DNA of 49,185 bases from a virus (lineage: Duplodnaviria; Caudoviricetes): the IMG/VR virus record IMGVR_UViG_3300025103_000029, positions 1 through 49,185 of that record; one strand, written 5' to 3'. The notes beneath the pieces are model-generated. The model did not search any database, was not told the origin of the DNA, and saw only the letters and a list, made by a program, of their open reading frames with translations. The translations under genes were made by a program, and so were the position numbers. This document shows, one piece after another, positions 508-33,492 of this stretch. Numbering within the stretch: position 1 is the first letter of the stretch; every line of letters begins with the position of its first letter.

Positions 508-2115
508 ATGGCAAATTTTGATTTATCTAAACTTATGGAAGGAAAGAACCCACAATCAGTTATGCTTGCTGAAACAAGAGAGCTTAAAGGAAAATGGGAA
601 CAAACTGGACTTTTAGAAGGTTTAGGAGAGAGAGAACAATCACAGATTTCTGTATTGTTAGAAAACCAAGCAAAACAATTGCTTGATGAAGCTACTGCTA
701 CCGGTACAGGTGGTGGAAACGAAGAGTGGAGTGGAGTAGCTCTACCATTAGTAAGACGTATCTTCGGTGAAATTGCATCGAAAGAATTCGTTAGTGTTCA
801 ACCAATGAACTTACCATCTGGTCTAATCTTTTATTTAGATTTCAAATATGGTACTGCACAACCAGGTAATCCTGCGTTTTCTGGAAAATCACTTTTTGGT
901 GGTACTGGTGACGATTTAGGTTCAACTGATTCTGCTGTAAATGGTTTATACGGTGAAGGTAGATTTGCATATACTGCAAATGACGTATCTGATTCAATCG
1001 CTGTTGGTGATTTAACTATCGCTTCAGCTTCTTGGGCAGATGTAAATTATGATGCATCATTATCAGCTTCAGTTGCTGATGGTTCATTAGCTAAGATTTC
1101 ATTTGACGCATCTGAATTAGTAAGACCTGATTTAGATGGTGTAAGAAGTTTTTACATTTCATCTTCAGATTTCGCATCTGCAGATTCTTACTACCCTGCA
1201 CACTCTAGTGTTGCTGGTGCAGTAGGTTCAGAAGTAATTTCTACATTCGCAAAATTATCATCTTTAGGTGATGATTTAGCAGTTAAACATTCACAACAAC
1301 CAATCGCTGCAAACAGAGGAGACTTCGAAGATAGTTCTCCATCTGAACCTGCAACTGATTTAGGTATTCCTGAAGTTGATTTAGAATTAAAGTCTGAAGC
1401 AATTGTTGCTAAGACTAGAAAACTAAAGGCTGTATGGACTCCTGAGTTAGCTCAAGATTTAAATGCATACCATTCAATTGATGCTGAAGCTGAATTAACT
1501 TCAATGTTATCAGAGTACATCTCATTAGAGATTGACCTTGAAATCCTTGATATGTTAAAAGCTAACGCTTTAACAACTGAATACTGGTCTGTAACTTTAG
1601 GTGAAGAGTATGATGCAAACACTAGTGGATGGGTTGCTGGAGGAAATTCTGCAGCTTATACTAAAAATTCTTGGTTCCAGACTTTAGGAGCTAAGTTGAA
1701 CAAAGTATCTAACAAGATACACCAATTAACTTTAAGAGGTGGAGCTAACTTCGTTGTTGCTTCTCCTGATGTATGTACTATTTTAGAATCTATTCCAGGA
1801 TTTACTGTATCTGCTGATAAAGATGCTTCATCTTTCGCAGCTGGTGTATCTGCTGTTGGTTCTATGAGTAATAGATATACTGTGTACAAAAACCCTTATA
1901 TGACTTCTAACGAAATCTTATTAGGATTTAAAGGTTCAAACTTCCTAGAAACAGGAGCTGTTTATGCACCTTATGTACCGTTAATTATGACTCCACTTGT
2001 ATATGACCCAACTAACTTTACACCAAGAAGAGGTGTAATGACTAGATATGCTAAGAAAATGGTAAGACCAGAATTCTATGGTAAAATCTATGTTAAAGAT
2101 TTAAACAACCTATAA
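508..2115 (+). CDS. gp23: Major capsid protein, T4 gp23 family
   Basis: gp23 motifs: LVRR..VQPM..PSGLIF, AKTRKLKAVWTPELAQDL..H..DAEAEL, YAPYVPL, F.PRRGVMTRY. Probable prohead protease site at LLDE|A. Confidence 0.97.
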   Translation: MANFDLSKLMEGKNPQSVMLAETRELKGKWEQTGLLEGLGEREQSQISVLLENQAKQLLDEATATGTGGGNEEWSGVALPLVRRIFGEIASKEFVSVQPMNLPSGLIFYLDFKYGTAQPGNPAFSGKSLFGGTGDDLGSTDSAVNGLYGEGRFAYTANDVSDSIAVGDLTIASASWADVNYDASLSASVADGSLAKISFDASELVRPDLDGVRSFYISSSDFASADSYYPAHSSVAGAVGSEVISTFAKLSSLGDDLAVKHSQQPIAANRGDFEDSSPSEPATDLGIPEVDLELKSEAIVAKTRKLKAVWTPELAQDLNAYHSIDAEAELTSMLSEYISLEIDLEILDMLKANALTTEYWSVTLGEEYDANTSGWVAGGNSAAYTKNSWFQTLGAKLNKVSNKIHQLTLRGGANFVVASPDVCTILESIPGFTVSADKDASSFAAGVSAVGSMSNRYTVYKNPYMTSNEILLGFKGSNFLETGAVYAPYVPLIMTPLVYDPTNFTPRRGVMTRYAKKMVRPEFYGKIYVKDLNNL

Positions 2116-2166
2116 TCGGTTAATTAAATTTTAGTAGTAAGTCATTACAATAGTGATGATAGAATT

Positions 2167-2197
2167 AAGAGGGAACAGAAATGTTCCCTCTTTTTTT
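2167..2197 (+). terminator. Rho-independent terminator after the capsid gene
   Basis: GAGGGAACA-GAAA-TGTTCCCTC stem-loop followed by T7. Confidence 0.9.
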
Positions 2198-2377
2198 ATG
2201 CTATAATAAGATATTTATTAGAAATTTACAAAAAAACATGATAAATATCATGTTTTAGTACTATATTTTGTTTTTTTCGTAAAATAATTGAATAAAACCT
2301 GTATTTTTTTTAAATTATAACTATATATTGACTCAACATATTAAGACAATTCGGTCTTAATTCATAAACTATATATA

Positions 2378-3299: not shown

Positions 3300-4451
3300 A
3301 TGTCTCAAGCACGAATTTGGACAGGTTCAGCTGATTTTACATCAGGTTCCTCTACACCATTTGGTATATATGATGATGATTCATCATTTCAATTAGATGC
3401 ACCGAAGGTTGCATCGTGGTGTGCAAAAAGGCTAGGATATCCTATTATTGATATAGAACTACAAGGAGAGAACTTCTTTGCAGTATTTGAAGAATCAGTA
3501 TCGGAGTATTCTGCACAAGTAAATCAGTTTAACATAAGAAATAACCTCGGTTCATTAGAAGGACAACCAACTGGTTCTGATTATACTGGTCAATCAGTAC
3601 AAGGTTCAGAACTAAATAACGTAGTAACAATAGCAGAATCATATGGTAACTTTGCAAACGTTGGTGGTAGAACTGATATCAAAAAGGGTTCAATAGATGT
3701 AACTACTGCCTCTCAAGAATATGATTTACAGGCTCTTTATGGAGATGTATCTGAAAGTAGTGAAAGAATTGATGTAACTAAAGTATATTACGAAACAACT
3801 CCAGCAATTAACAGATTCTTTGACCCATATTCAGTTAGTGGACAAGGAACACTTAACTTAGTTGATGAATTTGGATTTGGTTCATTCTCACCAGCGGCAC
3901 AATTCGTGATGATGCCGATTTATGAGGATATGTTAAGAATTCAACAGATTGAATTTAATGACCAAATTAGAAAATCTGCACATTCATTCAATATAGTAAA
4001 TAATAAAATAACAATTTTACCAAAACCTGCATCAGATTATAAACTTTGGTTTGAATATCAAGTTGTAAAAGATAGAAGAGAAAATTCTACTGTTATAATT
4101 CCAAATGTAGTATCGGATTATTCAAACATTGGATATAGTTTTGCTACATATAGTAGAATAAACGATGTTGGTAAACAATGGGTTAGAAAATACACACTTG
4201 CTTTGGCAAAAGAGATGTTAGGTGCAATTAGAGAGAAATATTCTTCAGTACCAATTCCTGGTTCAGAAGTTTCTTTAGATGGTGCATCACTTAGAGCTGA
4301 AGCACAAACAGAAAAAGATGCTCTTATTGAACAACTAAGAGAGAATCTTAATGAAGTAAGTAAAAAACAAAGAATAGAGAACGAAGCTTCTATGGTTGAC
4401 CAACAACAAACAATCATAAACAAAGTTCCACTAGCAATTTATATAGGATAA
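3300..4451 (+). CDS. gp13: Neck/head-completion protein (gp13-like)
   Basis: RLGYPIIDIEL near the N-terminus and WVRKYTLALAKEMLG.IR.KY..VP.PG..V.LDG at the C-terminus; located downstream of the capsid gene. Confidence 0.8.
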   Translation: MSQARIWTGSADFTSGSSTPFGIYDDDSSFQLDAPKVASWCAKRLGYPIIDIELQGENFFAVFEESVSEYSAQVNQFNIRNNLGSLEGQPTGSDYTGQSVQGSELNNVVTIAESYGNFANVGGRTDIKKGSIDVTTASQEYDLQALYGDVSESSERIDVTKVYYETTPAINRFFDPYSVSGQGTLNLVDEFGFGSFSPAAQFVMMPIYEDMLRIQQIEFNDQIRKSAHSFNIVNNKITILPKPASDYKLWFEYQVVKDRRENSTVIIPNVVSDYSNIGYSFATYSRINDVGKQWVRKYTLALAKEMLGAIREKYSSVPIPGSEVSLDGASLRAEAQTEKDALIEQLRENLNEVSKKQRIENEASMVDQQQTIINKVPLAIYIG

Positions 4452-4455: not shown

Positions 4456-5019
4456 ATGCCGAAGTTTTTCAACGCTAAAGATTTAGATTTCATAAAAACT
4501 ATCTCAGAGGAGGTGGTAGATTATGTAGTAGAACAAGCAGTAACCTTGTTCAAGGTATCTGTGGGTGAAACTAAAACTAATTTATATGGTGAATCTCTTG
4601 GTAAAGTGTGGAGAGCACCTTCTACTATCATGGCGATTGTAGATAGAGAACCAATGAATGTAGTTTATGAAGGATTTGGTGCAGATAAACAACAAGCAGT
4701 TGAATTTAGGTTCAATAGAGAACGATTAAGAGAAACAACACACTCAGTTCCTAAAATTAGAGATGTAAATGGTACATTAGTACCAACAGAAGCAATTCAA
4801 AACTTAACAGTTGGTTATCCTGAGATTGGTGATGTAATATTGTTTGATGGTATCTATTATGAAATGGATAACATACGAGAAAACCAAAGAATTGGTGGAC
4901 AACCTCAAATCTATGATAAAGAAACAAATACATTCCAAAATTCTAACAATACACTTATTGGTGTTGGATTTATGGTAAGAAGAAGTCAAATTCAAATAGA
5001 TGAAAGGGTATATCACTAA
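4456..5019 (+). CDS. gp14: Neck/head-closure protein (gp14-like)
   Basis: TNLYGES and P.IGDVI.F motifs; located between the gp13-like and gp15-like genes. Confidence 0.65.
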   Translation: MPKFFNAKDLDFIKTISEEVVDYVVEQAVTLFKVSVGETKTNLYGESLGKVWRAPSTIMAIVDREPMNVVYEGFGADKQQAVEFRFNRERLRETTHSVPKIRDVNGTLVPTEAIQNLTVGYPEIGDVILFDGIYYEMDNIRENQRIGGQPQIYDKETNTFQNSNNTLIGVGFMVRRSQIQIDERVYH

Positions 5020-6179
5020 TGGCAATCGACCCTTTAAAAAATATAAAACCAAACAGAGCACTTCAATACAAAAAAGAAAGTATTGAACAAGGAAAAGGTG
5101 TAAAATTATATGATGTGGATATGGCAATTGCCGAACACATGATAGATACTGTATTACCTACTGTTGAAATCTTCCAAGAGAAACAAAAGATACCTGTTGT
5201 GTATGGAAATCCTGAAAGATGGAAATCTGTTCAAAAGGATGGGTATTTACGAGATAAAAAAGGAATATTACAAATTCCTCTCGTAATGTTTAAGAGAAAT
5301 TCTATTGAAAGAAACGATAGTTTATCAAATACAATGAATAGACACGTTTCTTACCCATCAGTATCAAGATATTCCAAAAAACATAAGTACGATAAGTTCT
5401 CAGCAATGACTTCAACACAAAAACCTGTTGAAATGTATGATGTTGTGATACCTGATTATGTTACTTTATCATATGAAGTAATAATATGGACTGATTTTAC
5501 AGAACACATGAATAAAATTGTTGAAGCCTTTCAATATGCAACTGATGAGTATTGGGGAGATAAAGGTGGATTTAAATTTAGAGTAAAAATAGATAATTTT
5601 GATAATACAACAGAAGTAAGTGAAGGTTCACAAAGAATTGTAAGAACAAACTTTACTATGGCAGTAAATGCTTATCTATTACCAGAACAATTTGATAACC
5701 AATCAACTCATAAAAAATCATTTACCCCTAAAAAGGTAGTTTGGGGATTAGAAACCGATTTAACAGGATTAGGTGATGGAAATGTAACAAATTCAACAGT
5801 AAAAAAACAATTAATAAACGAATATTCGGATATTATCGATTTTGTATCCATACGAGGTTCAAAACAAGGTTCATTTGTTGATGCAGATACAATGAAACTA
5901 ACAAATGTAGAAAAACCTAAATTACCACCCGAATTAATTGGTACATTTAATGAAGATGAGTGGTTTAGAGTTTATATCAATGGAGTATTTATTCCAAAGG
6001 CAAAATATAATTTTATTGAAGGTGATAATGATGATGAGATAGTATTTAATTTCGCAACAGGTTCACTTTCAGTAGGTGGAACATATCCTACTGATTTACA
6101 ATCAACTCAAACTGAGTTGGGATATATTTTAGAAAATACAGATGAATTTGGTGTAACTGGTAAATTTATAGAAAAATAA
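5019..6179 (+). CDS. gp15: Tail terminator/sheath stabiliser (gp15-like) with a C-terminal extension
   Basis: IPVVYGNPERW, PDYV.LSYEV.IWT....MNKIVE, RIVRTNF...VNAYL; extra C-terminal beta domain (FRVYING). Confidence 0.75.
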   Translation: MAIDPLKNIKPNRALQYKKESIEQGKGVKLYDVDMAIAEHMIDTVLPTVEIFQEKQKIPVVYGNPERWKSVQKDGYLRDKKGILQIPLVMFKRNSIERNDSLSNTMNRHVSYPSVSRYSKKHKYDKFSAMTSTQKPVEMYDVVIPDYVTLSYEVIIWTDFTEHMNKIVEAFQYATDEYWGDKGGFKFRVKIDNFDNTTEVSEGSQRIVRTNFTMAVNAYLLPEQFDNQSTHKKSFTPKKVVWGLETDLTGLGDGNVTNSTVKKQLINEYSDIIDFVSIRGSKQGSFVDADTMKLTNVEKPKLPPELIGTFNEDEWFRVYINGVFIPKAKYNFIEGDNDDEIVFNFATGSLSVGGTYPTDLQSTQTELGYILENTDEFGVTGKFIEK

Positions 6180-6180
6180 A

Positions 6181-6877: not shown

Positions 6878-9800
6878 ATGGCAACATTAATTCAAAGTAA
6901 ACAGATACAAGGAATAGTAACCGCTTCGGTAATCGAGGGGGATTTTGCTGTAAGTGGTGGTTCGGTTAACTTAGGTGCTGCAAGTGGTGTAACAGGTTCA
7001 TTTAGTGGTTCATTCGTTGGTGATGGTAGTGGAATACAAGGAATAGATTATTCTCAAATAACTAATACACCGGTATTTCTACCAGGTGATAATATAACAA
7101 TCACATCCGGTAGTAATATCATTACTATAACTTCAACTGCAAGTGGTGGTGGTTCAAATGAATCTTTAAACTCATTTACTGCATCATACTATTCAGATTC
7201 TTCATCATTTGATTCAAGAATTGTAGGTATTTCTGCAAGTGGTAGTGGTGCTGATTGGAATACTAATTTACAAAATATTCCAAGTGGAATTATTAGTGGT
7301 TCTATTCAAATTCTTGGTGGAACTGATATTATTAGTAGTTCTGCTCAAATATCATCTTTAGGGTTTATAACATCATCTCATACAGATATAGCTTCATTAA
7401 ATGATTATACTGCATCAAATGATTTAAGAATAACTAATTTAGAATCAACAACTTCTTCATTAGATACACGAATAACTCAATTATCAGATAGTACTGGTTC
7501 GTATGAAACTATTGGTAGAGGAATAATAAGTTCATCAGAACAATTCCCAAGTGGATTAGTAAGTGGTTCAGAACAAATATTAGGTGGGACAGGAATACTT
7601 AGTGGTTCTCATAGTGATTTATCATCATTAAATACATACACATCATCTACTGATGAAAGATTATCAAATATAGAAGCTGCAACAGGTTCTTATTTAACAT
7701 CTGAAACAGATTCTCAAACACTTTCTATAAGTGGAGACCAATTAACAATAACAACTGGTAATACAATAACAATACCAACAGGTTCAAGTGTAGTAGCAGG
7801 AACAATTAGTGGTTCACAACAAATAAGTGATTTAGGATTCATTTCTTCATCACATACAGATATAGCTGATTTAAATACGTTTACTTCATCAATACAAACT
7901 GAAGTAGATGCATTATCAGCCGCAACATCATCGTATCTAACATCTGAAACTGATTCACAAACACTTTCTATTGATGGAGACCAATTAACAATATCAAGTG
8001 GTAATACAATAACAATACCAAGTGGTAGTAGTACAACTGATTATACTCAACTTACAAATGTTCCTAGTGGATTAGTAAGTGGTTCATCTCAAGTAGATTA
8101 TGATGTTCTAACTGGTGGTAAAGGATTACTTAGTGGTTCTCATACAGATATAAGTTCATTAAATGATTATACATCATCAACTGATGCACGATTAAGTGGT
8201 ATAGATTCAATAACTTCTTCTTTAGAACAAAGAGTTAGTGAAATTGAATCAAACACCGGTTCATATGATGATTTAACAAATATATCATCATTAAATACAT
8301 TCACATCATCAATAGATACAAGTATAAAATCTAAATTAGATTCAGATGGTGTAATTAGTGGTTCACAACAAATTACTGATTTAGGATTTATATCCTCATC
8401 ACATACTGTAATTGAATCATTAAATACGTTTACTTCTTCAATCCAAACAGAAGTAGATGTTATATCTGCTCAAACATCATCTTACCTAACAGAACTTCCT
8501 GATGGATTAGTTTCTGGTTCTGTTCTTAGAACTTTAGGTGGAACAGGTGTTTTAAGTGGTTCTAAAACTGATATAAGTTCATTAAACGTATTTACTTCTT
8601 CAATCCAAACAGAAGTAGATGGTTTAAGTTCGTTTACATCATCTTATTTAACTGAAATACCAGCTGGTACAATAAGTGGTTCATCACAATTAACATCTTC
8701 TTATGATACAAGGTATGCGTTAAGTGGTTCTAGTGGAGAAACTGATTTTGATGGAAATAGAATTGTATCACAAGAAAAACTACCAACGATGTTTTCATCA
8801 TCGTTTAATCCAGGTACAAGTGGTTCAATAGTAGATTTCTTAAACGCAGTATTTTATCCAAACTCAGACCCTGCTATAACAAGTGGTAATCAAACTATAT
8901 CTGAATATAGTTCAAGTGGTTCACCAATATTTACTTTAGAAGCAACGGATCCTGAAGGACAATCACTAACATTTGGTACAGGTTCAACATATACTGATGA
9001 TTTAGTTAGAGTTGCATCCAATGGTGTTGTAACTTTAAATGCAGTACCAACATCTGCATCATTTAATACTGATTTAGTAGGTGGTTCACATGGACATACA
9101 TTTATTGCAAAAACAACTGATACATTTAACTCATCAATTGAAAAAGATATTACAATATTTGTAACACCAAACTCAACACCTGTATTTAGAGAAACTTCTA
9201 TTAGTGGAAATGTAATTACATCGGTAACTTCAAACTTAAATGAAAGTTCTGCTGATGATACTTTACTAAAAAGAGTATTCTTTACAGATGCAAATGGAGA
9301 TTCAATAACAATACACTCATCTTCAATAGATGGAAATCATTTTGAAGTAATAAAATCAGCAACGTATGTTGATATATTACAAAATACTGGTTCTTTAAAT
9401 TATGAAGAAAAAACTACATACAATTTCAGTATATCTGCATCAGATGAACATTATGAGTTAGGACAAGATTCGGATTCAATAGTTGTTTTACCAATTACTG
9501 TAAATGTAACTGATAACTTAGTACCAACTATTTCAAACCAATCACTATCATCTATAAATGAGAATTCATCCAATGGAACAACTGTTGGAACAATATCTGC
9601 AGCGGATAATGAAGGAGATACAATAACATTTGCTAACTTTACTTTATATAAGTTAGAATTAGATAATGTAAATGTACCAAGTGGTTCGTATGGTGGTACT
9701 TCTCAATTAACAGACCCACATGAGAACCCATTCCAAATGAGTTCAAGTGGAGTAGTAACAAGAAAAGTAGGGATTTTCTTAAATTCCGATTTAATAAACG

Positions 9801-12967: not shown

Positions 12968-12982
12968 AATGAAAGGAATAGT

Positions 12983-13573: not shown

Positions 13574-13591
13574 TATTTAAAAAATAATACT

Positions 13592-21628: not shown

Positions 21629-21642
21629 GGAACATAACAAAC

Positions 21643-22296
21643 ATGGCACAAATTATTAGATTAAAAAGAAGTAACACCGCTAATAGTAAACCAACTACAA
21701 GTGAGTTGGCTATTGGTGAATTAGCAATCAATGTAGATGATGGAAAAGTATTTCTTAGAAAGTCTGGTTCTAATTCTGGTGTTGATGTAATTAAAGAGTT
21801 TGTTACTCTTGACCATGAAGGAGTACTAACAGGTTCTTTCAGTACCGTGGGTACAATTTCAGCATCAGCTTTTCAAGGTGATGGTTCTCAATTAACAAAT
21901 ATTTCTGTATCTCAAAATGCAACTGTAAAACAATCTTTTACAAATTCTGATACTTGGAGTGTAGAACATAATTTAGATACACCAAATGCAATTGTACAAA
22001 TATATGATTCAAGTGATTTTCAAATAATACCATCAACATTACAAATAATTGATAATGATAATGTAAGAGCAACATTCTCAACTAACCAAAGTGGTTATGC
22101 TGTTGTTGCACGAGGTGGACAAATTGTAAGTGGTTCAATAGAAGCAGATAATATTAGTGGACTTGATGATAAAGTTCTAGAAGAAATAAACCAAGCTGGG
22201 GTATTTAGTGGTTCAGCACAAATAACTTTATCGGGTGATGTTACAGGAACAGGAAATGCAACTGTTATATCAACAGTTGATGGAGAAACATTTTAA
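21643..22296 (+). CDS. Short fibre/connector protein
   Basis: MAQIIRLKRS..KPT..L..GELAIN..DGK N-terminus, one HNL..P..VQ.YD domain, C-terminal VDGETF. Confidence 0.7.
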   Translation: MAQIIRLKRSNTANSKPTTSELAIGELAINVDDGKVFLRKSGSNSGVDVIKEFVTLDHEGVLTGSFSTVGTISASAFQGDGSQLTNISVSQNATVKQSFTNSDTWSVEHNLDTPNAIVQIYDSSDFQIIPSTLQIIDNDNVRATFSTNQSGYAVVARGGQIVSGSIEADNISGLDDKVLEEINQAGVFSGSAQITLSGDVTGTGNATVISTVDGETF

Positions 22297-22316
22297 TATA
22301 AAAATAATATAGTTAG

Positions 22317-22324
22317 TATTTATA
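22317..22324 (+). promoter_or_regulatory. Putative late promoter TATTTATA
   Basis: Recurring motif. Confidence 0.55.
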
Positions 22325-22346
22325 AAAATAATAAGGAAAAAACAAA

Positions 22347-25300
22347 ATGATAATACACAATCCCAAAATTTCAGGTTCATTACAATTCCCATCGGATGAG
22401 AATGGTAATTTAATAACCTTACAAGTACAGAATGGTACTCTTGAAACCAAAACCTTAAACTCAAGTGGAGTTGACCAAGGAATACAACCAGCTGTTAATT
22501 ACTCTGGTTCATTTACAGGTTCATTTGTTGGAGATGGTTCAAGTTTAACTGGTGTAGCAGCAAGTGGTTTTAACATCGATATTTTAGATGCCGTTGGTGG
22601 AGCTTCAATCGAACAATCTGATACATTCCTTATTAGTGATGCTGGAACTGAAAAGAAAATAACTTTCTCAAATATAGAAGATTCAATATTTGCAAATGTA
22701 AGTGGAGATATTAGTATTGCAGCTGGGGGTGCTGTAACTCTTGGTAAAGATGGAGTAATATCTGGTTCAGCTCAGATATCAGCATTAGGATACTCTACTA
22801 CTGATAACGAACTAACTACCGAGGAAGTACAAGATATAGCTGGTGGAATGGTAAGTGGTAATACTCAAACAGGAATTACAGTAACTTATCAAGATGGTGA
22901 TGGAACAATTGATTTTGTGGTTGCATCTCAAACAGATGAAAACTTTACAACTGCTGACCACTCTAAATTAGATGGTATCGAAGCAAGTGCAGATGTAACA
23001 GATGCAACAAACGTTACTGCAGCTGGAGCCTTAATGGATTCAGAAGTAACTGATTTGGCAGGTATCAAAGGTGTAACAATTTCTACTCTACAAGTAAAAC
23101 CATCGGAAGGTGCTTTTGCAGATGGAGATAAAACAAAACTAGATGCTATCGAGGCTAGTGCAGATGTAACAGATGCGGCAAACGTATTATCATCACTACC
23201 AAGTGGTGTAATATCTGGTTCAGCTCAAGTATCTATTGATTCATCTCAAATTAGTGATGTTGCAGCATTCTCACAAAGTGGAACATATGCAAACTTAAGA
23301 GCACAATCAACAACTGCAGGAGATGTTGGTTTAGGTAATGTAACAAATGAGAGTAAAGGAACAATGTTTACTTCTCCAACATTTACAGGAACACCAATAT
23401 CAACAACACCTTCGGCAAACGATGATTCAACAAAAATAGCAACAACTGCTTATGTACAACAAGAACTTACAGATTTAATAGGTACTGCCGATTCAACAGT
23501 AGATACACTTGGAGAACTATCAGCTTCATTAGCTGCAGATTCTGGTTCACTAAACTCTTTAGTAACAACTGTTGGTACTAAATTAGCAAAAGCAAGTAAC
23601 TTATCTGATTTAGCAGATGCATCAACTGCAAGAACTAACTTAGGAGTTGCAATTGGTTCAGATGTACAAGCATTTAATTCAACATTGGCAACTGTTGCTG
23701 GTGGAACATATGCTGGTGATAATTCAATAGTAACAGTAGGTACGGTAACCGCAGGTGATGTACAAGCAATATTACCAAGTGGTGTAGTATCTGGTTCAGC
23801 TCAAGTACAAGCATTGGGTGGTGTTAATGATAATACAATTACATTTACTGCAGGTGCAGGATTAGATGGTGGTGGTGCAATAACACTTAACCAAAGTTCA
23901 GATGAAACAGTAACATTTACAGTAGCTGATGGTGTAGTAAGTGGTTCATCACAAATTAGTGGAATAACTAATACTCAATTAGCTGGTTCAATAGCTAATT
24001 CAAAATTATCAAACTCAAGTATAACAATTGATGGTTCGGCTATCTCACTAGGTGGTTCAGTAACAACTTTACAATTAGGTTCAACTTCATCAACTGCACT
24101 TGCAGGTGATACTACAACAATTAGTGGAGCTCAAGCATCGGCAATTAGTGCCAACACAAGTAAAGTTGGATTTACAGAAGCATTAGTAAAAGATAAAATG
24201 AATGATGATACTGTATCAAGTGGTTCAGCTTCAGATATAAAATCATTCTTATCCATATCTTCATCAGATATTTCTGATGTTGCAGCGTTCTCACAAAGTG
24301 GAACATATGGAAGTTTAAGAGCACAAGGAACTACAAAAGGTGATGTTGGTTTAGGTAATGTAACAAATGAATCAAAAGCAACTATGTTTACTGATGCTGC
24401 ATTGACAGGTAATTCAACATCAGAAACACCGAGTTCAAATGATGATTCAACAAAAATAGCAACAACTGCTTATGTACAACAAGAACTTACTGATTTAGTA
24501 GGTACTGCTGGTTCAACATTAGATACTCTTGGTGAACTATCTGCTTCTTTAGCATCAGACCAATCAGGTTTGGCATCACTAACAACAACTGTTGGTACTA
24601 AATTAGCAAAAGCAAGTAACTTATCTGATTTATCAAATGCTTCAACTGCTAGAACTAACTTAGGTGTAGATGCAGCTGGAACTGATAATTCAACAGATGT
24701 AACTTTAGCTGGTAATGATTACTTAACTATAAGTGGACAAGAAATTACTGCAGGTGCTATAAACAATGATGATTTAACAAATTCATCAATTACTATAAAT
24801 GGTGTAGCTATCTCATTAGGTGGTTCAGTAACAACTCCAAATGATAACACTCAATTATCAACAGAAGCAGTTCAAGATATAGTAGGTGGAATGTTAGGTG
24901 GTACTGAAACAGGAATTACAGTAACGTATCAAGATGGTACTGGTGATATTGATTTCGTAGTATCATCTCAAACAGATGAAAACTTTACAACTGCTGACCA
25001 CTCTAAATTAGATGGTATTGAAGCAGGTGCAGATATAACTGATAGTGGAAATGTTGTACCTATCTTAAATGCAAATACAGTAATATCTGGTTCAGCTCAA
25101 ATTGCAGCATTAGGATATTCTACTACTGATAATGAATTAACTACTGAAGAAGTTCAAGATATCGTAGGTGGAATGGTAAGTGGTAATACCGAAAGTGGTA
25201 TTAGTGTTACTTATGATGATGCTGGAAATTCATTAGATTTCTCAGTTACATCACAAACTGATAATAACTTCACTACTACTTTAAAAAATAAATTAGATGG

Positions 25301-26966
25301 TATTGAAACAAGTGCAGATGTTACTGATACAACAAACGTAACTTCTGCTGGAGCATTAATGGATTCAGAACTAACATCTATCACAGATGTTAAAGCATTA
25401 GACCAATCAGTTGTTAGTGGAGCATCACCAACATTTGGAACTGATAACTTTACAGATGCTACAAATAAAAGGTTAATGACTGATGCTCAAGAAACTAAAT
25501 TAGACTCAGTTGAATCATCAGCAGATGTAACAGATACGACTAACGTAACTGCTGCTGGAGCATTGATGGATTCTGAATTAACATCTATTGCAGATGTTAA
25601 GGCATTAGACCAATCAGTTGTTAGTGGAGCAACACCAACATTTGGAACTGATAACTTTACAGATGCATCTAATAAAAGATTCATGACAGATGCTCAAGAA
25701 ACTAAATTAGATAATATTGAGAGTAATGCAACTGCTGACCAATCTGCATCTGAAATAAGAACTTTATTAGGAACTGGTAATAGTGGTATAGTACCAGCGG
25801 CTGGTTCAAGTGGAGAATTCTTAAAACACGATGGAACATTCGGTACACCATCTTATACTACGAATACAAACACCCAAAACACCGCAGCTGAAATAAGAAC
25901 TAAAATCGGAACTGGTAATAATGGTGTTGTACCTGCAGCGGGTACAAGTGGACATTTCTTAAAACACGATGGAACATTTGGATTACCTTCATATACAACA
26001 AATACAGATACTCAATTAACTACTGAAGAAGTTCAAGATATAGTAGGTGGAATGTTTAGTGGTAATAGTGAAACAAGAATTTCAGTAACCTATCAAGATA
26101 GTGATGGAACTATTGATTTATCTGTTAATGATATGACAGCTAATGATAATGATGATGTATCTGTTGCAAATCTTAAAACTAGATTAGCTGGTGGATTCGG
26201 TTCAAATGCAGTACAGATTGGTGATGCAGATGATACTGTAACTATTCCTGGTAACTTAACAGTACAAGGTACTCAAACTATCAACAATGTAACATTGATT
26301 GAAACTTCTAATGGAGTAGTATTTGAAGGAACAACTGCTGATGCATATGAAACAACATTAGTTGCTTCAGACCCATCTGCAGATAGAACAATAACTTTAC
26401 CAAATTCAACTGGTACAGTAGCTCTTACATCTCAAATACCAACAAGTAACTCTTCATTAACAAATGGTGAAGGATATATTTCATCATTTGATATTACAGA
26501 ACAAACAGATAGTAAATATCTAAGAAGTAATGCTAATGATACTGCAACTGGTATTATATCAATTACAAACTCAACTGCATCAACATCCAAAACGACTGGA
26601 GCACTTAAAGTAACTGGTGGTGTTGGTATTAGTGGAGCATTGAATGTTGGTGGTGATGTTGTAGCATACGCTTCTTCGGATGAAAGATTAAAAGATAATA
26701 TAGAACTTATCTCTAACCCAATTGAAAAAGTACAATCTTTAAAAGGTGTAACATGGAATTGGAATGATAATGCAGATGAATTACAACAATCATTACCAAA
26801 TGTTGGTGTAATTGCACAAGATGTTGAGAAAGTTCTACCACAGTTGGTAACTGATAGAGATAATGGATTCAAGGGTGTAGATTACGCTAAACTTACAGGA
26901 TTACTTATCGAAGCTATTAAAGACCAACAAAAACAAATTGATGAATTGAAGAGTAAACTATCTTAA
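22347..26966 (+). CDS. Long fibre protein with a C-terminal peptidase S74 chaperone
   Basis: Fibre motifs (DVGLGNVTN, TKIATTAYV, LDTL.EL, ARTNLG, KLDGIE..ADVTD); SSDERLKDNI from about 26673. Confidence 0.85.
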   Translation: MIIHNPKISGSLQFPSDENGNLITLQVQNGTLETKTLNSSGVDQGIQPAVNYSGSFTGSFVGDGSSLTGVAASGFNIDILDAVGGASIEQSDTFLISDAGTEKKITFSNIEDSIFANVSGDISIAAGGAVTLGKDGVISGSAQISALGYSTTDNELTTEEVQDIAGGMVSGNTQTGITVTYQDGDGTIDFVVASQTDENFTTADHSKLDGIEASADVTDATNVTAAGALMDSEVTDLAGIKGVTISTLQVKPSEGAFADGDKTKLDAIEASADVTDAANVLSSLPSGVISGSAQVSIDSSQISDVAAFSQSGTYANLRAQSTTAGDVGLGNVTNESKGTMFTSPTFTGTPISTTPSANDDSTKIATTAYVQQELTDLIGTADSTVDTLGELSASLAADSGSLNSLVTTVGTKLAKASNLSDLADASTARTNLGVAIGSDVQAFNSTLATVAGGTYAGDNSIVTVGTVTAGDVQAILPSGVVSGSAQVQALGGVNDNTITFTAGAGLDGGGAITLNQSSDETVTFTVADGVVSGSSQISGITNTQLAGSIANSKLSNSSITIDGSAISLGGSVTTLQLGSTSSTALAGDTTTISGAQASAISANTSKVGFTEALVKDKMNDDTVSSGSASDIKSFLSISSSDISDVAAFSQSGTYGSLRAQGTTKGDVGLGNVTNESKATMFTDAALTGNSTSETPSSNDDSTKIATTAYVQQELTDLVGTAGSTLDTLGELSASLASDQSGLASLTTTVGTKLAKASNLSDLSNASTARTNLGVDAAGTDNSTDVTLAGNDYLTISGQEITAGAINNDDLTNSSITINGVAISLGGSVTTPNDNTQLSTEAVQDIVGGMLGGTETGITVTYQDGTGDIDFVVSSQTDENFTTADHSKLDGIEAGADITDSGNVVPILNANTVISGSAQIAALGYSTTDNELTTEEVQDIVGGMVSGNTESGISVTYDDAGNSLDFSVTSQTDNNFTTTLKNKLDGIETSADVTDTTNVTSAGALMDSELTSITDVKALDQSVVSGASPTFGTDNFTDATNKRLMTDAQETKLDSVESSADVTDTTNVTAAGALMDSELTSIADVKALDQSVVSGATPTFGTDNFTDASNKRFMTDAQETKLDNIESNATADQSASEIRTLLGTGNSGIVPAAGSSGEFLKHDGTFGTPSYTTNTNTQNTAAEIRTKIGTGNNGVVPAAGTSGHFLKHDGTFGLPSYTTNTDTQLTTEEVQDIVGGMFSGNSETRISVTYQDSDGTIDLSVNDMTANDNDDVSVANLKTRLAGGFGSNAVQIGDADDTVTIPGNLTVQGTQTINNVTLIETSNGVVFEGTTADAYETTLVASDPSADRTITLPNSTGTVALTSQIPTSNSSLTNGEGYISSFDITEQTDSKYLRSNANDTATGIISITNSTASTSKTTGALKVTGGVGISGALNVGGDVVAYASSDERLKDNIELISNPIEKVQSLKGVTWNWNDNADELQQSLPNVGVIAQDVEKVLPQLVTDRDNGFKGVDYAKLTGLLIEAIKDQQKQIDELKSKLS
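23240..26020 (+). repeat. Nested coding repeats within the fibre gene
   Basis: A ~400-nt block at about 23240-23650 and 24260-24670; tandem 66-aa units at about 25310-25710; tandem EIRT..GTGN.G.VPAAG..G.FLKHDGTFG units at about 25745-26015. Confidence 0.8.
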
Positions 26967-27085
26967 ATAAGAAAGTTCACTTAACAATTTAAATTTTAAA
27001 AAGTTAAATAGTATATATATATCTTTATATAAAGGTAATATATTATTTAGGGTAGATAATTATATAAAAAAGGTAAGTCATATAT

Positions 27086-28363
27086 ATGGCACAATTAGTT
27101 AAGCTAAAAAGAACGTCAGTTGCTGGTAGAAAACCTACCACATCAAACTTGGAACTTGGAGAATTAGCGATTAATACTTACGATGGTAAGATATTTTTCG
27201 AAAAAGATTCAGGAACACCTTCCATACGAGAAATAGCCACAGAAGATACTTACCACTTTTACACAACTTCATTAGATTCAAGATATGTTAACCTCACAGG
27301 TGATGAAACCATTGCAGGTAACAAAACATTTTCAAACAACATAACGATTGCAGGAAACCTCTCAGTAGAGGGAACTACAACTACAATTGATTCAACTACT
27401 CTTAATATTGGAGATAATACGTTAGAACTTAACTATGGTGGTTCTCAAACAACAGGAGGTATCTTAATAAAAGATGCAACTGGTGGTTCAACTGTAAGTG
27501 GTTCATTATTATGGGATTCTTCAAATGATTTTTGGAAAGCAGGAAAATTAGGTTCTGAATCAGAAGTAATTACTACATCTAATATAGTAACAAACTTACC
27601 AAGTGGAACTGTTAGTGGTTCTTCACAAATATCACTTAGTGGATTTAATACTTCACAATTATCCGAAAATACAAACCTTTATTATACAGATGCAAGAGTA
27701 AAAACTAAATTAAATACTGAATTAGTACTAAGTGGTAGTAATTTAGAAGGAATGACCGTAAGTGGTTCATTTAGTGGTTCTTTCCAAGGTGATGGTAGTA
27801 GTTTAACAGGATTATCAGTAGACCAAGTTGCAACAGTAACAGATACTTTTACAAATGCATCTTCTAAAGTAGTAACTCACAACTTTGGTACTAAAAATGT
27901 AATTGTAACTGTATATGATGAAAATGATGGTTATTTTATACCAAATTCAATTGTAACAACAAATACTAATCAAGTAACCGTAACATTTGCATCAACTGAA
28001 AGTGGTAGAATAGTAGTTGCAAAGGGTGGTCATGTTGTACAAGGAGTTTCTTCCGATTCAAATCTATTAGATGGTGAAGATGGAACTTATTACTTAGATT
28101 ATGGTAATTTTACAAGTGTTCCGAGTGGAATAGTTAGTGGTTCATCCCAAATTACAGATTTAACTACTCACAAAGAAACAGTTAGTGGAGCATCTTCATA
28201 TGCAGTAGACCACAACTTAAACGAACAATATCCAATAGTACAATGTTGGAATACTTCAACTTCACAACAAGAACAAGCAGAATCAGTAACAACAAATTCA
28301 GTAAATAGAGTAACTGTAACTTTTGCTGGTAATTTTGCAGGTTTAATCATTGTAAAAAAATAA
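27086..28363 (+). CDS. Fibre/connector protein
   Basis: MAQLVKLKRT..KPT..L.LGELAIN..DGK N-terminus; two HN(F/L) domains; shares the GNL.VEGTTTTIDSTT module with 13738-16575. Confidence 0.7.
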   Translation: MAQLVKLKRTSVAGRKPTTSNLELGELAINTYDGKIFFEKDSGTPSIREIATEDTYHFYTTSLDSRYVNLTGDETIAGNKTFSNNITIAGNLSVEGTTTTIDSTTLNIGDNTLELNYGGSQTTGGILIKDATGGSTVSGSLLWDSSNDFWKAGKLGSESEVITTSNIVTNLPSGTVSGSSQISLSGFNTSQLSENTNLYYTDARVKTKLNTELVLSGSNLEGMTVSGSFSGSFQGDGSSLTGLSVDQVATVTDTFTNASSKVVTHNFGTKNVIVTVYDENDGYFIPNSIVTTNTNQVTVTFASTESGRIVVAKGGHVVQGVSSDSNLLDGEDGTYYLDYGNFTSVPSGIVSGSSQITDLTTHKETVSGASSYAVDHNLNEQYPIVQCWNTSTSQQEQAESVTTNSVNRVTVTFAGNFAGLIIVKK

Positions 28364-28367: not shown

Positions 28368-29366
28368 ATGGTATATGATGTGTATTATACTACTGGTGGT
28401 GGTCCTTGGGTAAATGCTGGTACTGATACTTGGGTAAATCTATGGATGGAACTTATTGCTCCTAAATTAGATGTAAAACCTATTCTTTTAATTCATAGAA
28501 ACAAACCAAAAGGAAGTGAAGATTATGAATTTCCAATAGAAGCTCATTGGCATGGTGATAATATTGAAAAGTTTGAAGAATTATGTAAAGGAGCAAGGAG
28601 AATCAATATATTACATGGGCATTATACACCAACAAAACCGATAATCGATAATAGTGATAAAATACATTCAAATGTTTTACACAATTCAGTAGACCATATA
28701 TTAAAATCTCAAATGGGTGGTGATGTTATGTTAAGTTGGCATCCTTATTTAGATTCGAGTTGGGAAACACAGGTAAATGATTGGTCAAAAAATTCAATAT
28801 GGGTTGGTTTGTTTGAAATATTGTTTGAAAACAAGAATATACCTAACTTTTATGAATTTAAACAAAATTTACCATTAAATGATTCTAATACACTTGGTTT
28901 TGCTGCAAGATGTGAAGGAAGAAAGAATCCATATTACTTAGATGGTTTAAAATCTTATATATTTACAAACACAACAGAATTTAATATAGTTTGGAAACAA
29001 GGAACTAAACTAGATACCTCTAAATCTAAAATATATCATTATAATTCTAAATTTAAAGATACGTTCTATAATATGGATTGGGGAATATCTCACTCTTGTT
29101 TTACTAGTGAACCTTTTGGATATTCTATATTTGAAGCAGTAGATTATGGTAAACTACCCATATTACACACATCTTGGTGTAAAGATTTAGAATATCCTTA
29201 CAGAGCTTCATCTAAAAAAGAATTTAATCATATTTATAAGAGGTTATCTAAAACCTCATATTCAGAAAAAAATAAATGGTTTAATTTGTTAAAAAAATTC
29301 ATGATTAATAATTATACTAATAAGAATAGATGGGTAAACGATTTACTTAATATTTATAATATATAG
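28368..29366 (+). CDS. GT-B fold glycosyltransferase (GT4-like)
   Basis: N-terminal Gly-rich TTGGG..AG; FAAR...RKNP; EPFGYSIFEA (EX7E)...GKLPI. Confidence 0.75.
   Translation: MVYDVYYTTGGGPWVNAGTDTWVNLWMELIAPKLDVKPILLIHRNKPKGSEDYEFPIEAHWHGDNIEKFEELCKGARRINILHGHYTPTKPIIDNSDKIHSNVLHNSVDHILKSQMGGDVMLSWHPYLDSSWETQVNDWSKNSIWVGLFEILFENKNIPNFYEFKQNLPLNDSNTLGFAARCEGRKNPYYLDGLKSYIFTNTTEFNIVWKQGTKLDTSKSKIYHYNSKFKDTFYNMDWGISHSCFTSEPFGYSIFEAVDYGKLPILHTSWCKDLEYPYRASSKKEFNHIYKRLSKTSYSEKNKWFNLLKKFMINNYTNKNRWVNDLLNIYNI
29350..29358 (+). promoter_or_regulatory. Putative late promoter ATATTTATA within the 3' end of the glycosyltransferase gene
   Basis: Recurring motif, followed by AGGAG and ATG. Confidence 0.55.
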
Positions 29367-29378: not shown

Positions 29379-30689
29379 ATGCCAACAATAAGCTCAGGAG
29401 ACGGTCTTTCATTAAACAATTTAGCAGGTGCAACCGGTACAACACAAAACTCTAATGTATCATTAGGTACTATTAAAGGTTCACCATCTGCAGGTGATGA
29501 TATTGGACTGACTACATTTTGCATAGATGAAATAACCGGTTTAACTGGATTTACATATGCGATTGAATCAACAACAGAAACATATTCACTTGGAGTAACA
29601 AGTCCTGGTACAAACTATCTTTCAACAGTTGGTGCTTATAGTGGAAATGTAACTTGGACAGTTCCAGTAGGTTCAAAATTATCAGTAAATACTAATAGTG
29701 GAATATCTGCAACATTTAATGTAGCAGCAATGGATAACTCGGATGGAATATTAGATGGAGCAATAACACATACCATTCGTGCTGTATATTCAGATGGATA
29801 TAATGACCACCTTGATTCTGGAGATGGATATGGTACAAATTTTGATAAAACAGTTTATTCAATTGATTCTTATGATGGTAATACAACAGGATTATGTTTA
29901 ACATCAGATACACCTATTACTTTACCTAATGGTGAAGTAATTCCAATTGGAGATGCTGAAGAAGGAATGAAGTTAAAAGGATATTCTTTAAAAGGATTGG
30001 GAGATTATGATGATTCTGAATATATGAATTGGACTTCTACTGATTTACAACCAGAAATGGATGTAGTGGAAGTTGAAAATGTAGTTTTCTCATTTGCAAG
30101 TAAATATTATGATATAAATAATGGAGATGTAAAATGTACATCTGAACATCCTTTCTTAGTATTGGAAGGTGGTGATTATAAATTTAAAAGAGCTCACTTA
30201 TTAGGTGAAGGAGATATTTTAATAAAAGGTAATGGTAGTGAAGTAGAACAAGTTTCTATTTCATCAATTGAAATTATCGAAGAAGATATAGAGATTGTAT
30301 CATTAGATGTATCAAATACAGATACCTATATAGCTAATGGATATATAACTCACAACAAAGGAACAAACTCACATACAGATTTTGATGGACCAACTGCACC
30401 AACAAGTGTATCATACTCACATCCAAACTTATCATGGAGTGGTGGAACACCTGATACTGATTCTGGTGGTATTACAGGATATGATGTACAAGTAGATAAT
30501 AATTCTGATTTTTCATCACCTGTTATAAGTCAAACAAATTGGAATGCATCTTCAATGCAGTTATCAGGAGCAATTTCAGCTGGAACATATTATGCAAGAG
30601 TAAGAAACATACAATCAGGATTAAGGTCTGATTGGACAACTGTTGGTGGTAATAACTCATCTATTAGTGTGAGTGTGTGGCCTCAATAA
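29379..30689 (+). CDS. Virion-associated protein with a Hint (intein-like) domain and a C-terminal FN3-like domain
   Basis: CLTSDTPI...TSEHPF...LDV...TYIANGYITHN; then PTAP...LSW...ITGYDVQV...YYARVR. Confidence 0.8.
   Translation: MPTISSGDGLSLNNLAGATGTTQNSNVSLGTIKGSPSAGDDIGLTTFCIDEITGLTGFTYAIESTTETYSLGVTSPGTNYLSTVGAYSGNVTWTVPVGSKLSVNTNSGISATFNVAAMDNSDGILDGAITHTIRAVYSDGYNDHLDSGDGYGTNFDKTVYSIDSYDGNTTGLCLTSDTPITLPNGEVIPIGDAEEGMKLKGYSLKGLGDYDDSEYMNWTSTDLQPEMDVVEVENVVFSFASKYYDINNGDVKCTSEHPFLVLEGGDYKFKRAHLLGEGDILIKGNGSEVEQVSISSIEIIEEDIEIVSLDVSNTDTYIANGYITHNKGTNSHTDFDGPTAPTSVSYSHPNLSWSGGTPDTDSGGITGYDVQVDNNSDFSSPVISQTNWNASSMQLSGAISAGTYYARVRNIQSGLRSDWTTVGGNNSSISVSVWPQ
29895..30356 (+). other. Hint domain, BIL/mini-intein type (Cys173-Asn326)
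   Basis: Block A C1, block B TxxH and terminal HN; the +1 residue is Lys; no homing endonuclease. Confidence 0.8.
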
Positions 30690-31061: not shown

Positions 31062-31087
31062 AAATTATATTTTGAATAAACTTATTA

Positions 31088-31096
31088 ATACTTATA
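31088..31096 (+). promoter_or_regulatory. Putative late promoter ATACTTATA
   Basis: Recurring motif. Confidence 0.6.
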
Positions 31097-31140
31097 TAAG
31101 AGTATTATTATACAAAAAACATAACAAGGAGTAAAATAAA

Positions 31141-33492
31141 ATGGCAGAAAAAATCGTATCACCTGGTGTATTTACAAGAGAGAATGACCTTTCTTTCTTA
31201 TCACAAGGGATTGGTGAAATAGGAGCAGCAATAATTGGACCTTTCCATAAAGGACCTGCTTTCGTACCAACCGTTGTTAATACGCAATCAGAATTTGAAG
31301 AAAAATTCGGTGTACCTGATGGTTCATACTATACAGGATATACCGTACAAAATTACCTTAGAGAAGCAGGAACAGTAACTATTGTTCGTGTTGGTCATCA
31401 AGGTGGATATTCACAAGCTAAACCAATAGGAATTGAAATAAGTGGTTCATCATCAGAAGGTGGAAGAAAATTAATCGGTGTTTTAAACGCAACACACAAT
31501 GGTTCTTTAACCGTTGGATTTCCTTCATGTTCTATTGATTCTACTGCGGAAGAATCCGTATTCAGTATTAGTGGTTCTAATATAGCAGCAGTATCGGCAT
31601 CTGTACTACCAAGTGCAGGAAATGATATATCAGACGTATTTGGAAGTAACCCAAGAGGTTCTAAAAAAGCGTATGCAGCTCAATATTTTGAAAAAGCTGC
31701 AACAGATTTTACTGATTGGTTTCAAAGTGGTTCTCAAGTATTACACAGAGAATTAGCTACACAAGATTTTACACAAGATATTCAACACGCAACAACTCCT
31801 TATATACAATCACAATTAATTTCAGGAGAAAGACATGATTTATTTAGATTCCATACTTTAGGTGATGGTTCTAATTATAATAAAGAATACAAAATTGGTA
31901 TCTTTAATGTAAAAGCAGCTGGTGCATCAAATGCAACTGATTATGCAACTTTCTCAATTTCAATTAGAAAGTATGGTGATATAAATAAAAGAACAAATGT
32001 ACTTGAAACGTTTAATAATCTTAACTTAGACCCAGCTTCACCAAATTACATTAAAAAAGTAATCGGTGATAGAAACGTTACTATTGATTCAAATGGTAAA
32101 CAAACTGAAAATGGTGATTATCCAAATAATTCAAAGTATGTAAGAGTAGATTGTTCAGAAGAAGGTTCATTCCCAATTACTGCAGCACCATTTGGACATG
32201 GAGCATATACAAATCCAATATATCATGGTACTGATGAATCATTAATTCCAGCGGTAATATTTGCAACTGGTTCAGAAAATAATAATGGTTCTAACTCAGT
32301 ACAATATAGTGGTATTGATTTAGAAACTGCAGTAGTAAAAATTGATAACAACAATTACTTAGCTCCAATACCTGCTTCGGCAACAGTTGGTGGTAATACT
32401 GCTTTCTCATTCGATGCGGACTTTACTGCAATCGTAACTGGTTCAGTTGGAACTAAGAACTTTGGATATTCATTATCAACATCTGATACTGCAACAACTA
32501 TTAATAAAAGACAATTTATCGTAGGATTCCAAAGTGGATTTGATGGTATCTCTCCAACAATCAAATCAGCTAAGTATGGTGATTCTGATTGGGGTGCAGG
32601 TAACTCTCAAGGATTTGATTTATCTACTTCAGCTGCTAATGGTTCAGTTGCATATGTAAAAGGAATAAACTCAGTATCTAATCCAGATGATTTCGATATC
32701 AACTTGGTATCTGTACCTGGAGTTGTAAGAAGATTACACTCTTATGTATTTGATAAAGTAACTGATATGGTAGAAGCTAGAGAAGATGCATTTTTCATCG
32801 GTGATGTAACTGATGGTGGTGATACAATATCTCAAGCAACTGCACAAGGTTCAGCAATCGATTCTAACTATGTAGGTACTTACTACCCATGGGTTAAAAC
32901 AATCGATAGAAACACTAATAAATTAACTGCAATTCCACCATCTGTATTGATGCCTGGTATATATGCAGCTAACGATGCTGTTGCAGCCGAATGGTTTGCA
33001 CCTGCTGGTTTAAATAGAGGTGGTATCGTAGGTGCGGTATCTGTATTAAACAGATTAACACACGCTGAAAGAGATACACTATATGAAGGAAAGATTAATC
33101 CAATTGCTCAGTTCCCGGGAGAAGGTATCGTAGCATTCGGACAAAAAACTTTACAAGATAAGGCATCTGCACTTGATAGAATCAACGTAAGAAGATTAAT
33201 GATTAAAGTTAAGAAGTATATTGCTTCAACTTCAAGATACTTAGTATTCGAACAAAATACTTCACAAACAAGAAGTAGATTCTTAAATACTGTAAATCCG
33301 TATCTAGAAGGAATACAACAAAGACAAGGATTGTATGCATTTAGAGTGGTGATGGATGAATCAAATAACACACCTGATGTAATCGACAGAAACATATTGG
33401 CTGGAGCAATTTATCTACAACCAACAAAAACTGCTGAATTCATCGTGTTAGATTTCAACATCTTACCGACAGGAGCATCATTCTCGGCATAA
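31141..33492 (+). CDS. gp18: Tail sheath protein
   Basis: SPGVFTREND; WFAPAGLNRG; LY..KINPI; GQKTL...SALDRINVRRL; FEQN; VVMDESNNTPDVIDRN; PTKTAEFI. Confidence 0.96.
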   Translation: MAEKIVSPGVFTRENDLSFLSQGIGEIGAAIIGPFHKGPAFVPTVVNTQSEFEEKFGVPDGSYYTGYTVQNYLREAGTVTIVRVGHQGGYSQAKPIGIEISGSSSEGGRKLIGVLNATHNGSLTVGFPSCSIDSTAEESVFSISGSNIAAVSASVLPSAGNDISDVFGSNPRGSKKAYAAQYFEKAATDFTDWFQSGSQVLHRELATQDFTQDIQHATTPYIQSQLISGERHDLFRFHTLGDGSNYNKEYKIGIFNVKAAGASNATDYATFSISIRKYGDINKRTNVLETFNNLNLDPASPNYIKKVIGDRNVTIDSNGKQTENGDYPNNSKYVRVDCSEEGSFPITAAPFGHGAYTNPIYHGTDESLIPAVIFATGSENNNGSNSVQYSGIDLETAVVKIDNNNYLAPIPASATVGGNTAFSFDADFTAIVTGSVGTKNFGYSLSTSDTATTINKRQFIVGFQSGFDGISPTIKSAKYGDSDWGAGNSQGFDLSTSAANGSVAYVKGINSVSNPDDFDINLVSVPGVVRRLHSYVFDKVTDMVEAREDAFFIGDVTDGGDTISQATAQGSAIDSNYVGTYYPWVKTIDRNTNKLTAIPPSVLMPGIYAANDAVAAEWFAPAGLNRGGIVGAVSVLNRLTHAERDTLYEGKINPIAQFPGEGIVAFGQKTLQDKASALDRINVRRLMIKVKKYIASTSRYLVFEQNTSQTRSRFLNTVNPYLEGIQQRQGLYAFRVVMDESNNTPDVIDRNILAGAIYLQPTKTAEFIVLDFNILPTGASFSA

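Follow-up and report, generated by a model that had tools for sequence, protein, structure and literature searches.

A Candidate Three-Residue O-Glycosylation Sequon in the Outer Virion Proteins of an Aquatic Jumbo-Phage Clade

The DNA considered here (hereafter the window) is the whole 49,185-nucleotide stretch of IMG/VR virus record IMGVR_UViG_3300025103_000029 (Duplodnaviria; Caudoviricetes), a 49-kb fragment, 24% complete, of a T4-related jumbo myovirus. The tripeptide [ST]GS is about three to five times as frequent as expected in the outer virion proteins of this uncultured phage and most related phages, and this excess is real, directional and selected at the protein level. With a probability of about 0.6, the wider class [S/T]-[G/A/S]-S is read as a putative sequon for phage-encoded cytoplasmic O-glycosylation, the candidate enzymes being a trio of glycosyltransferases (GTs) conserved in the relatives and termed GT-X, GT-Y, and GT-Z. 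A preliminary description of the window had proposed such a sequon and assigned it to a GT gene at 28368-29366; the sequon idea is supported, the motif being clade-wide, fold-independent, directional and specifically avoided by one protein family, while its link to that gene is not supported.

Motif Excess in the Window

Every peptide quoted in the preliminary description as recurring in virion proteins is found in the window. The capsid protein has SAS, SAS, and SSS at residues 173, 186, and 218; the neck protein has TGS, SGS, and TGS at residues 8, 15, and 91; the gp15-like protein has TGS at residue 347; and the tail sheath has SGS at residues 101, 144, and 196 and TGS at residues 376 and 433. 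In the 11 virion proteins of the window, [ST]GS is observed 124 times against 30.8 expected. When repeats are collapsed, the 124 sites become 55 contexts, whereas 300 shuffles averaged 30.5 and never exceeded 46; SGS keeps first place among the tripeptides after this collapse. The TGS said to lie inside 21-residue heptad repeats is there as well, in 13 ETGS-bearing copies within the gene 16736-21628; by pattern, T falls at heptad position a, G at b, and S at c, and this heptad pattern suggests a coiled coil.

Each protein was tested with 500 global shuffles and with 30-residue local shuffles. The observed/expected [ST]GS counts of the seven fibre-cluster genes are 41/10.6, 4/0.7, 13/3.4, 37/6.8, 4/0.7, 10/5.2, and 6/1.4; those of the sheath and the neck protein are 5/1.1 (p 0.008) and 3/0.4 (p 0.010), and all nine excesses also survive the local shuffles. 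The enrichment corrected for composition is thus borne out for the fibre genes, sheath and neck, but not for the capsid ([ST][GAS]S 3 vs. 2.8) or the gp15-like protein (1 vs. 0.2), neither of which is significant alone. The scarcity noted in the tube, chaperone and polymerase is uninformative protein by protein, because each expects fewer than 0.3 sites. The class as first proposed also holds in part: SGS (80 vs. 15.6 expected) and TGS (35 vs. 12.6) are enriched in the fibre cluster, while SSS is not (17 vs. 26.5) and TAS is barely raised (11 vs. 8.5); [ST]GS and SAS make up the enriched core. Support for the wider [ST][GAS]S class nevertheless comes from the interchange of its forms at orthologous sheath columns and from a Hint-domain family described below, which avoids all six of them.

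Distribution of the Motif in the Clade

In 166 clade sheaths (a set below 85% identity that includes the cultured Flavobacterium phage immuto), [ST]GS or SAS occurs 997 times against 255.7 expected, and 5 of the 166 have two sites or fewer. In a second set of 100 sheaths (representatives under 85% identity, 98 from the clade and two from phage LR756508), the observed/expected counts are 290/52 for SGS, 172/48 for TGS, and 112/52 for SAS; TAS and SSS are at expectation, and the excess is directional, with SGT (42/48) and TGT (44/45) also at expectation. Eight complete motif-rich genomes show [ST]GS ratios of 2.6-4.3 in their Ser/Thr/Gly-rich proteins, genes cut at the edges of 20-kb stretches being counted as pieces. 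The structural regions of four control phages, by comparison, give 39 vs. 30.8 with no direction bias. The clade is estimated at roughly 10,000 matching stretches in IMG/VR, and phages recorded on Flavobacterium and on Microcystis both have the motif.

Within the sheath alignment, SGS, TGS, SAS, TAS, and SSS interchange at orthologous positions and sites also wander; the outer region of the immuto sheath, gp041, is not alignable, yet it is equally motif-rich. In the orthologue panel, the sheath and four baseplate proteins are motif-rich in 9/9 motif-positive genomes, the capsid (1-7 sites in these nine) and the neck are variably rich, and the tube, tape measure, portal, TerL, helicase, and SSB are not motif-rich. 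The tail tube has zero sites in the nine genomes, and candidate motifs are internal, not C-terminal. The same folds are poor in the motif in LR756508 and in genome G005. LR756508 is motif-free (30/28.0) though nested in the clade on the sheath tree. G005 and G031, which represent one species and whose baseplate region is missing, have no motif excess (9/12.2) and lack the motif even at positions where relatives scarcely vary. Genome G036, without most outer genes, is uninformative (7/5.2). N-x-S/T is not enriched in the virion proteins of the clade; a switch to N-x-S in the motif-free G005 was considered and is not claimed, as the counts (NGS 11 vs. 4.9, N-x-S 63 vs. 47.5) hint at it only weakly. 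As separate observations, LR756508 has two sheath-like genes close together, one of them highly diverged (L084:37463-43426), and G005 has four tandem paralogues with near-identical N-termini (MIKL.D.LENKILVPRRS; L448:8253-11362).

Avoidance of the Motif in the Hint-Domain Family

The Hint-domain protein encoded at 29379 is 35% Ser/Thr/Gly and has zero motif sites. In 34 homologues with a median identity of 50%, [ST][GAS]S occurs 23 times against 125.5±24.1, and 0/200 column permutations, which keep relatedness, were as low. Control classes are not depleted ([ST][GAS]T 122 vs. 124.8; [ST][not GAS]S 395 vs. 290). The six [ST][GAS]S forms rank 1, 3, 5, 7, 9, and 11 from the bottom of 245 tripeptides in this family, in which TST, TSA, and STS are also low. 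No second sequon, N-x-S/T or other, is found in the 34 homologues (NxS z 0.3, NxT z 0.9). Two hub-region proteins show weaker avoidance (20 vs. 36 and 18 vs. 34.5); depletion in the tape measure protein was rejected as specific avoidance, its control classes being low too. Enrichment in some proteins together with specific avoidance in another points to a recognition site, since a turn preference predicts enrichment only. The Hint protein is likely a virion adhesin-type protein, a role suggested by the likeness of its N-terminus to such proteins; an Atlas search with that N-terminus gave scores no higher than 0.81. Its Hint domain suggests self-processing.

The Conserved Glycosyltransferase Trio

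A trio of GT genes (GT4-like GT-X and GT-Y, and GT2 GT-Z) is present in 8/8 complete motif-rich genomes, where it heads a variable island of GTs, epimerases, and aminotransferases; in immuto the three are gp181, gp180, and gp178. GT-X and GT-Y are adjacent or one short open reading frame (ORF) apart in G001, immuto, Mel-JY01, and those metagenome-assembled genome (MAG) loci that are long enough. The motif-free LR756508 has GT-X only, with GT-Y and GT-Z missing. Among the G001 genes that the motif-rich genomes share but LR756508 lacks, the sole identifiable transferases are GT-Y and GT-Z; two short ORFs are unannotated. Full-length GT-Y and GT-Z occur in 5/50,697 phage records, all of them immuto or Mel-JY01, and a pattern scan found GT-Y in 15/185,579 prokaryote genomes, all MAG contigs, with phage-like neighbours in 11/11 examined. 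The GT-Y model, with a predicted local distance difference test (pLDDT) score of 91, has chlorovirus B736L (PDB 3oy2) as its best structural match (E 1.4e-17); GtfA is not among the structural matches listed. It has been reported that immuto DNA contains fdPreQ1 in place of dG together with canonical dA, dC, and dT (10.1101/2023.04.13.536721), and because of this composition the immuto GT cluster likely has a non-DNA acceptor. G038, a distant 248-kb phage contig, has a trio at 47-66% identity to that of G001 and an [ST]GS-rich fibre block at 30-62%, while its virion and replication core is at 24-45%. This contig (G038:C1, L545-L557), found in a Flavobacteriaceae MAG, looks mosaic, with a distant core, a G001-like fibre block, and the trio; two of its proteins are rich in [ST][GAS]T (41/9.5, 49/15.3) and have PTP/PSP repeats, which may explain that excess. 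GT-X lies in two ORFs in Mel-JY01 (L108:13441-14932), and GT-Y is split in one MAG contig (L539:9995-11399), by a frameshift, a sequencing error or a genuine division of the gene.

Several results weigh against a sequon read by the trio. The trio is not visible in the window fragment itself. G005/G031 are motif-free yet have intact-looking GT-X, GT-Y, and GT-Z, and GT-X also occurs in the motif-poor phages LR756508, RM378, TJE1, and S-CBS4. The core proteins of G038 have only a small excess (overall observed/expected ratio 1.77). The flanks of the motif are hydrophobic and strand- or turn-like, and non-surface proteins show mild avoidance genome-wide (0.88 vs. 1.09 for the control class, a figure slightly biased by the exclusion step); in two motif-free genomes the corresponding values are 1.08 vs. 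1.11. Phages with weak relatives of GT-X or GT-Y have no motif excess (S-CBS4 20/15.5, TJE1 7/7.7, Kitkat 14/10.3, RM378 15/8.4). In G005, GT-Y (L446:12042-13322) has a rare first-loop change, G19S/T14C, seen in 5/128 rows; this variant is present in 8 contigs of about three lineages, including L498, L499, L502, L504, and L505. A causal role of the G19S variant in motif loss was not adopted: the five carriers searched have no sheath and the 90-kb carrier belongs to the G005 species, which leaves one lineage and a lead only.

Alternative Explanations

The unlikely alternative that keeps most weight is recognition of the motif outside the trio: by a host enzyme, for a non-sugar modification (phosphate, acyl, methyl, or sulfate), or by a binding decoration protein. 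Enrichment plus avoidance show recognition only, G001 encodes many other enzymes, and a host switch would lead one to expect a case like G005, in which the trio is kept and the motif is missing. This explanation has to meet the presence of the motif in phages of both Flavobacterium and Microcystis, and the position of GT-Y and GT-Z as the sole identifiable transferases among the motif-tracking genes of G001; in addition, the host D-S/T-x system requires export (PMC8550257).

Somewhat less probable again is a structural turn or close-packing motif, inherited clade-wide and carrying no modification. The hydrophobic flanking residues would fit such a motif, as would the frequent retention of G-S when the first residue changes (NGS, KGS, LGS), the many fibre sites that are copies of repeats, and the retention of the motif in relatives without the window GT. 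It leaves unexplained the preference for Ser over Thr at position 3, the scarcity in the same folds of LR756508 and G005 and in control fibres, and the presence in non-homologous sheath domains. It also leaves unexplained why six forms are avoided in a Ser/Thr/Gly-rich family: because the Hint family avoids [ST][GAS]S but not [ST][GAS]T, a sequon fits and a turn motif is hard to fit.

It is highly improbable that the motif is read by the GT encoded at 28368-29366, to which the preliminary description had attributed it, and a role for it as the initiating enzyme is largely refuted. This gene does start 4 nucleotides past the stop of the fibre gene 27086-28363, as had been noted, and it sits in the virion module in all 80 loci sampled by it. 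It has 710 homologues, the best 120 at 73-92% identity, and no match in Pfam, PHROGs, or PDB sequences; no Pfam match was found in 14 homologues either. Its model shows a GT-B fold at low confidence (pLDDT 59), for which Foldseek ranks two protein GTs, ApNGT/HMW1C and SPY, first (E about 2e-4), while VIA gives GT41 at Z 9.6-11.0, tied with GT4 enzymes and phage AGT. Atlas neighbours include PF00534 and AGT clusters. E-X7-E is the GT4 donor motif; E248..E256 is present here, and the second Glu becomes Q or D in homologues. The predicted assignment stops at GT-B. A family profile places the gene in 1/8 complete motif-rich genomes (absent from 7/8) and in the motif-free LR756508, and the sheaths of near relatives have 7.6 motifs with it and 7.1 without it (n = 14 each). 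The proposed co-occurrence of motif enrichment with this GT across relatives thus failed; the gene co-occurs only with the motif-avoiding Hint gene. Of the 139 loci sampled by sheath, each with 3.2 kb or more of upstream sequence, 16 have both genes and 123 have neither, with none discordant; the Hint gene follows the GT in 79/80 loci sampled by GT. The two (28368-30689) form a strictly co-inherited cassette; the GT is not the general sequon enzyme and probably serves its partner Hint protein. A second paralogue of this GT in G001 and G002 adjoins, or has in its vicinity, a Ser/Thr-rich protein whose N-terminus is similar and whose sites are few (2/8.9, 1/5.3). These motif-avoiding proteins are at L091:3613-5766 (G001) and L477:1043-2479 (G002), and a long poly-Thr run in the latter is possibly a mucin-like acceptor.

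A DNA-level signal or codon bias (GGTTC) yielding the peptide as a by-product has a negligible chance and is regarded as refuted. The motif Gly is GGT at 123/124 window sites, but non-motif GS shows the same bias, and the genome-wide scarcity of GATC (3 vs. 205) rules out GGA-TCN. GGTTC falls in frame 187 times, against 6 times in the two other sense frames. Relatives that do not avoid GATC take GGA as readily as GGT, and codons are mixed in immuto, G022, G023, and G024.

Proposed Mechanism

For the preferred reading, the phage-encoded sequon, the following course is proposed from sequence evidence. The GT trio would act on the short motif in newly synthesised chains, ahead of their folding or in the course of it, because the motif sits in strand-like contexts and in heptad repeats alike. 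It would add a core O-linked glycan, most likely on the third-position Ser, since Ser is preferred over Thr there and the heptad c Ser would be exposed where the a Thr is buried; position 1 is possible. Island enzymes may then extend the glycan, so that a coat differing between strains would cover the sheath, baseplate, neck, capsid, and fibre shafts. The Hint protein would avoid the motif, likely to stay free of the coat, and the window GT may be its dedicated modifier. Taken together, a two-tier system may exist in this very abundant aquatic jumbo-phage clade, in which the core trio glycosylates every outer [S/T]-[G/A/S]-S in a strain-variable manner, the sequon-free adhesin-type Hint protein is served by the cassette GT, and the coat can be dropped through loss or alteration of GT-Y; this full scheme is tentative and is held with less confidence than the sequon itself.

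Comparison with Known Systems and Significance

Phage-encoded soluble GTs are found here as a predicted GT-B enzyme in the window and as the trio with its sugar island in relatives, and virion proteins are presumably cytoplasmic. The proposed system would resemble those of mycobacteriophages, chloroviruses, NGT, and GtfA/B in its working, while its site fits none of their site definitions. It has been reported that mycobacteriophages Che8, Corndog, and Myrna have virion glycans at the C-termini of capsid and tail tube (PMC12619734, PMC12363180). Similarly, phage-encoded GTs are proposed here to act on virion proteins in the cytoplasm, in this case from sequence alone; unlike in mycobacteriophages, the motif is internal, has well over a hundred copies in unrelated outer proteins, and is missing from the tube, the positions compared being those of a motif and not of a glycan. 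In chloroviruses the glycans are N-linked and their sites have no sequence pattern in common, and B736L is a GDP-sugar-binding GT that has been proposed, unproven, to act on the capsid glycan (PMC4691112). Virus-encoded GT-B enzymes and nucleotide-sugar genes are common to both systems, whereas the candidate site here is a Ser/Thr tripeptide and occurs in a bacteriophage. As in GtfA/GtfB, there is an adjacent GT-B pair, with candidate Ser/Thr acceptors, fibrous surface proteins and variable elongating GTs nearby; unlike the Ser-X repeats and accessory Sec export of that system, the tripeptides are dispersed over globular and fibrous virion proteins (PMC8498110). HMW1C/NGT acting at N-X-S/T likewise combines a cytoplasmic GT-B enzyme, a three-residue sequon, a +2 hydroxyl, and adhesin hyperglycosylation (PMC8498110), but the first residue here is Ser/Thr, not Asn. 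The Bacteroidota O-glycosylation motif is D-(S/T)-(A/I/L/V/M/T/S/C/G/F) (PMC8550257), whereas the enriched motif starts with S/T and ends with S. Similar features are found in moraphages, large phages of aquatic habitats that are predicted to infect Bacteroidota and have four core GT orthogroups; virion glycosylation is mentioned for them as a possibility, and the available text proposes no motif or acceptor (PMC12619734).

A literature search, with most subscription papers outside its coverage, found no report of this motif. If true, the reading would provide a defined cytoplasmic O-glycosylation sequon of a bacteriophage, used over the whole virion across a clade, and would assign a function to its core GTs and variable sugar islands. 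It would also provide a three-residue tag for cytoplasmic glyco-engineering and bear on how aquatic virions escape degradation, grazing, and decoy binding. It is testable now, since the motif and the trio occur together in a cultured member, Flavobacterium phage immuto.

Gene Map and Further Observations

As shown in Table 1, the motif-bearing genes lie on one strand. Pfam and PHROG matches in the window cover a gp23-like capsid, neck, seven fibre-type genes, sheath, tube, hub, and tape measure; the gp15-like protein has no family match in these searches. The closest complete genome among those examined is G001 (289 kb, sheath identity 71%). The T4 gp23 alignment covers capsid residues 67-117 and 283-515 only, with the motif sites falling between them in a stretch that is likely an outer insertion domain; T4 gp18 aligns to sheath residues 5-105 and 554-782, and the motif sites are outside that core. 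Surface exposure of the sites is expected from domain position, the regions that do not align to gp18 and gp23 being presumably outer domains, as T4 architecture suggests.

Table 1. Positions of the main features in the window.
Feature	Position	Strand	Basis and motif content
Major capsid protein (gp23-like)	508..2115	+	Pfam Gp23; 3 motif sites, residues 173-220
Neck protein, gp13-like	3300..4451	+	phrog_211; 4 motif sites
gp15-like tail terminator	5019..6179	+	Label from preliminary description and gene order; 1 site in C-terminal extension
Fibre/appendage cluster, seven genes (6878, 12983, 13738, 16736, 21643, 22347, 27086)	6878..28363	+	Fibre and S74 chaperone matches; 115 [ST]GS sites
Two blocks of 21-residue heptad-like repeats, 13 copies	17363..19105	+	Sequence; within gene 16736-21628; ETGS in each copy
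Predicted GT-B glycosyltransferase, phage-specific	28368..29366	+	GT-B fold on pLDDT 59 model; no Pfam, PHROG, or PDB sequence match
Hint-domain protein, Ser/Thr/Gly-rich	29379..30689	+	Weak Intein_splicing and PT-HINT matches
Tail sheath	31141..33492	+	Pfam sheath; 7 [ST][GAS]S sites, all in residues 101-435

Cadherin-like domains (Pfam E 3.6e-10) are present in the 2029-residue protein encoded at 6878-12967, whose gene is second only to the neck block in motif density; the protein may be a head or collar appendage. Two PhyH-type 2OG-Fe(II) dioxygenases are encoded at 2378-3160, between the capsid and neck genes, and at 43483-44250. Meanwhile, GATC is depleted in the window (3 vs. about 205), in G001 (140 vs. 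1119), and in Mel-JY01 (0 vs. 357), and is not depleted in immuto, where all guanines are modified; this depletion is likely restriction-site avoidance.

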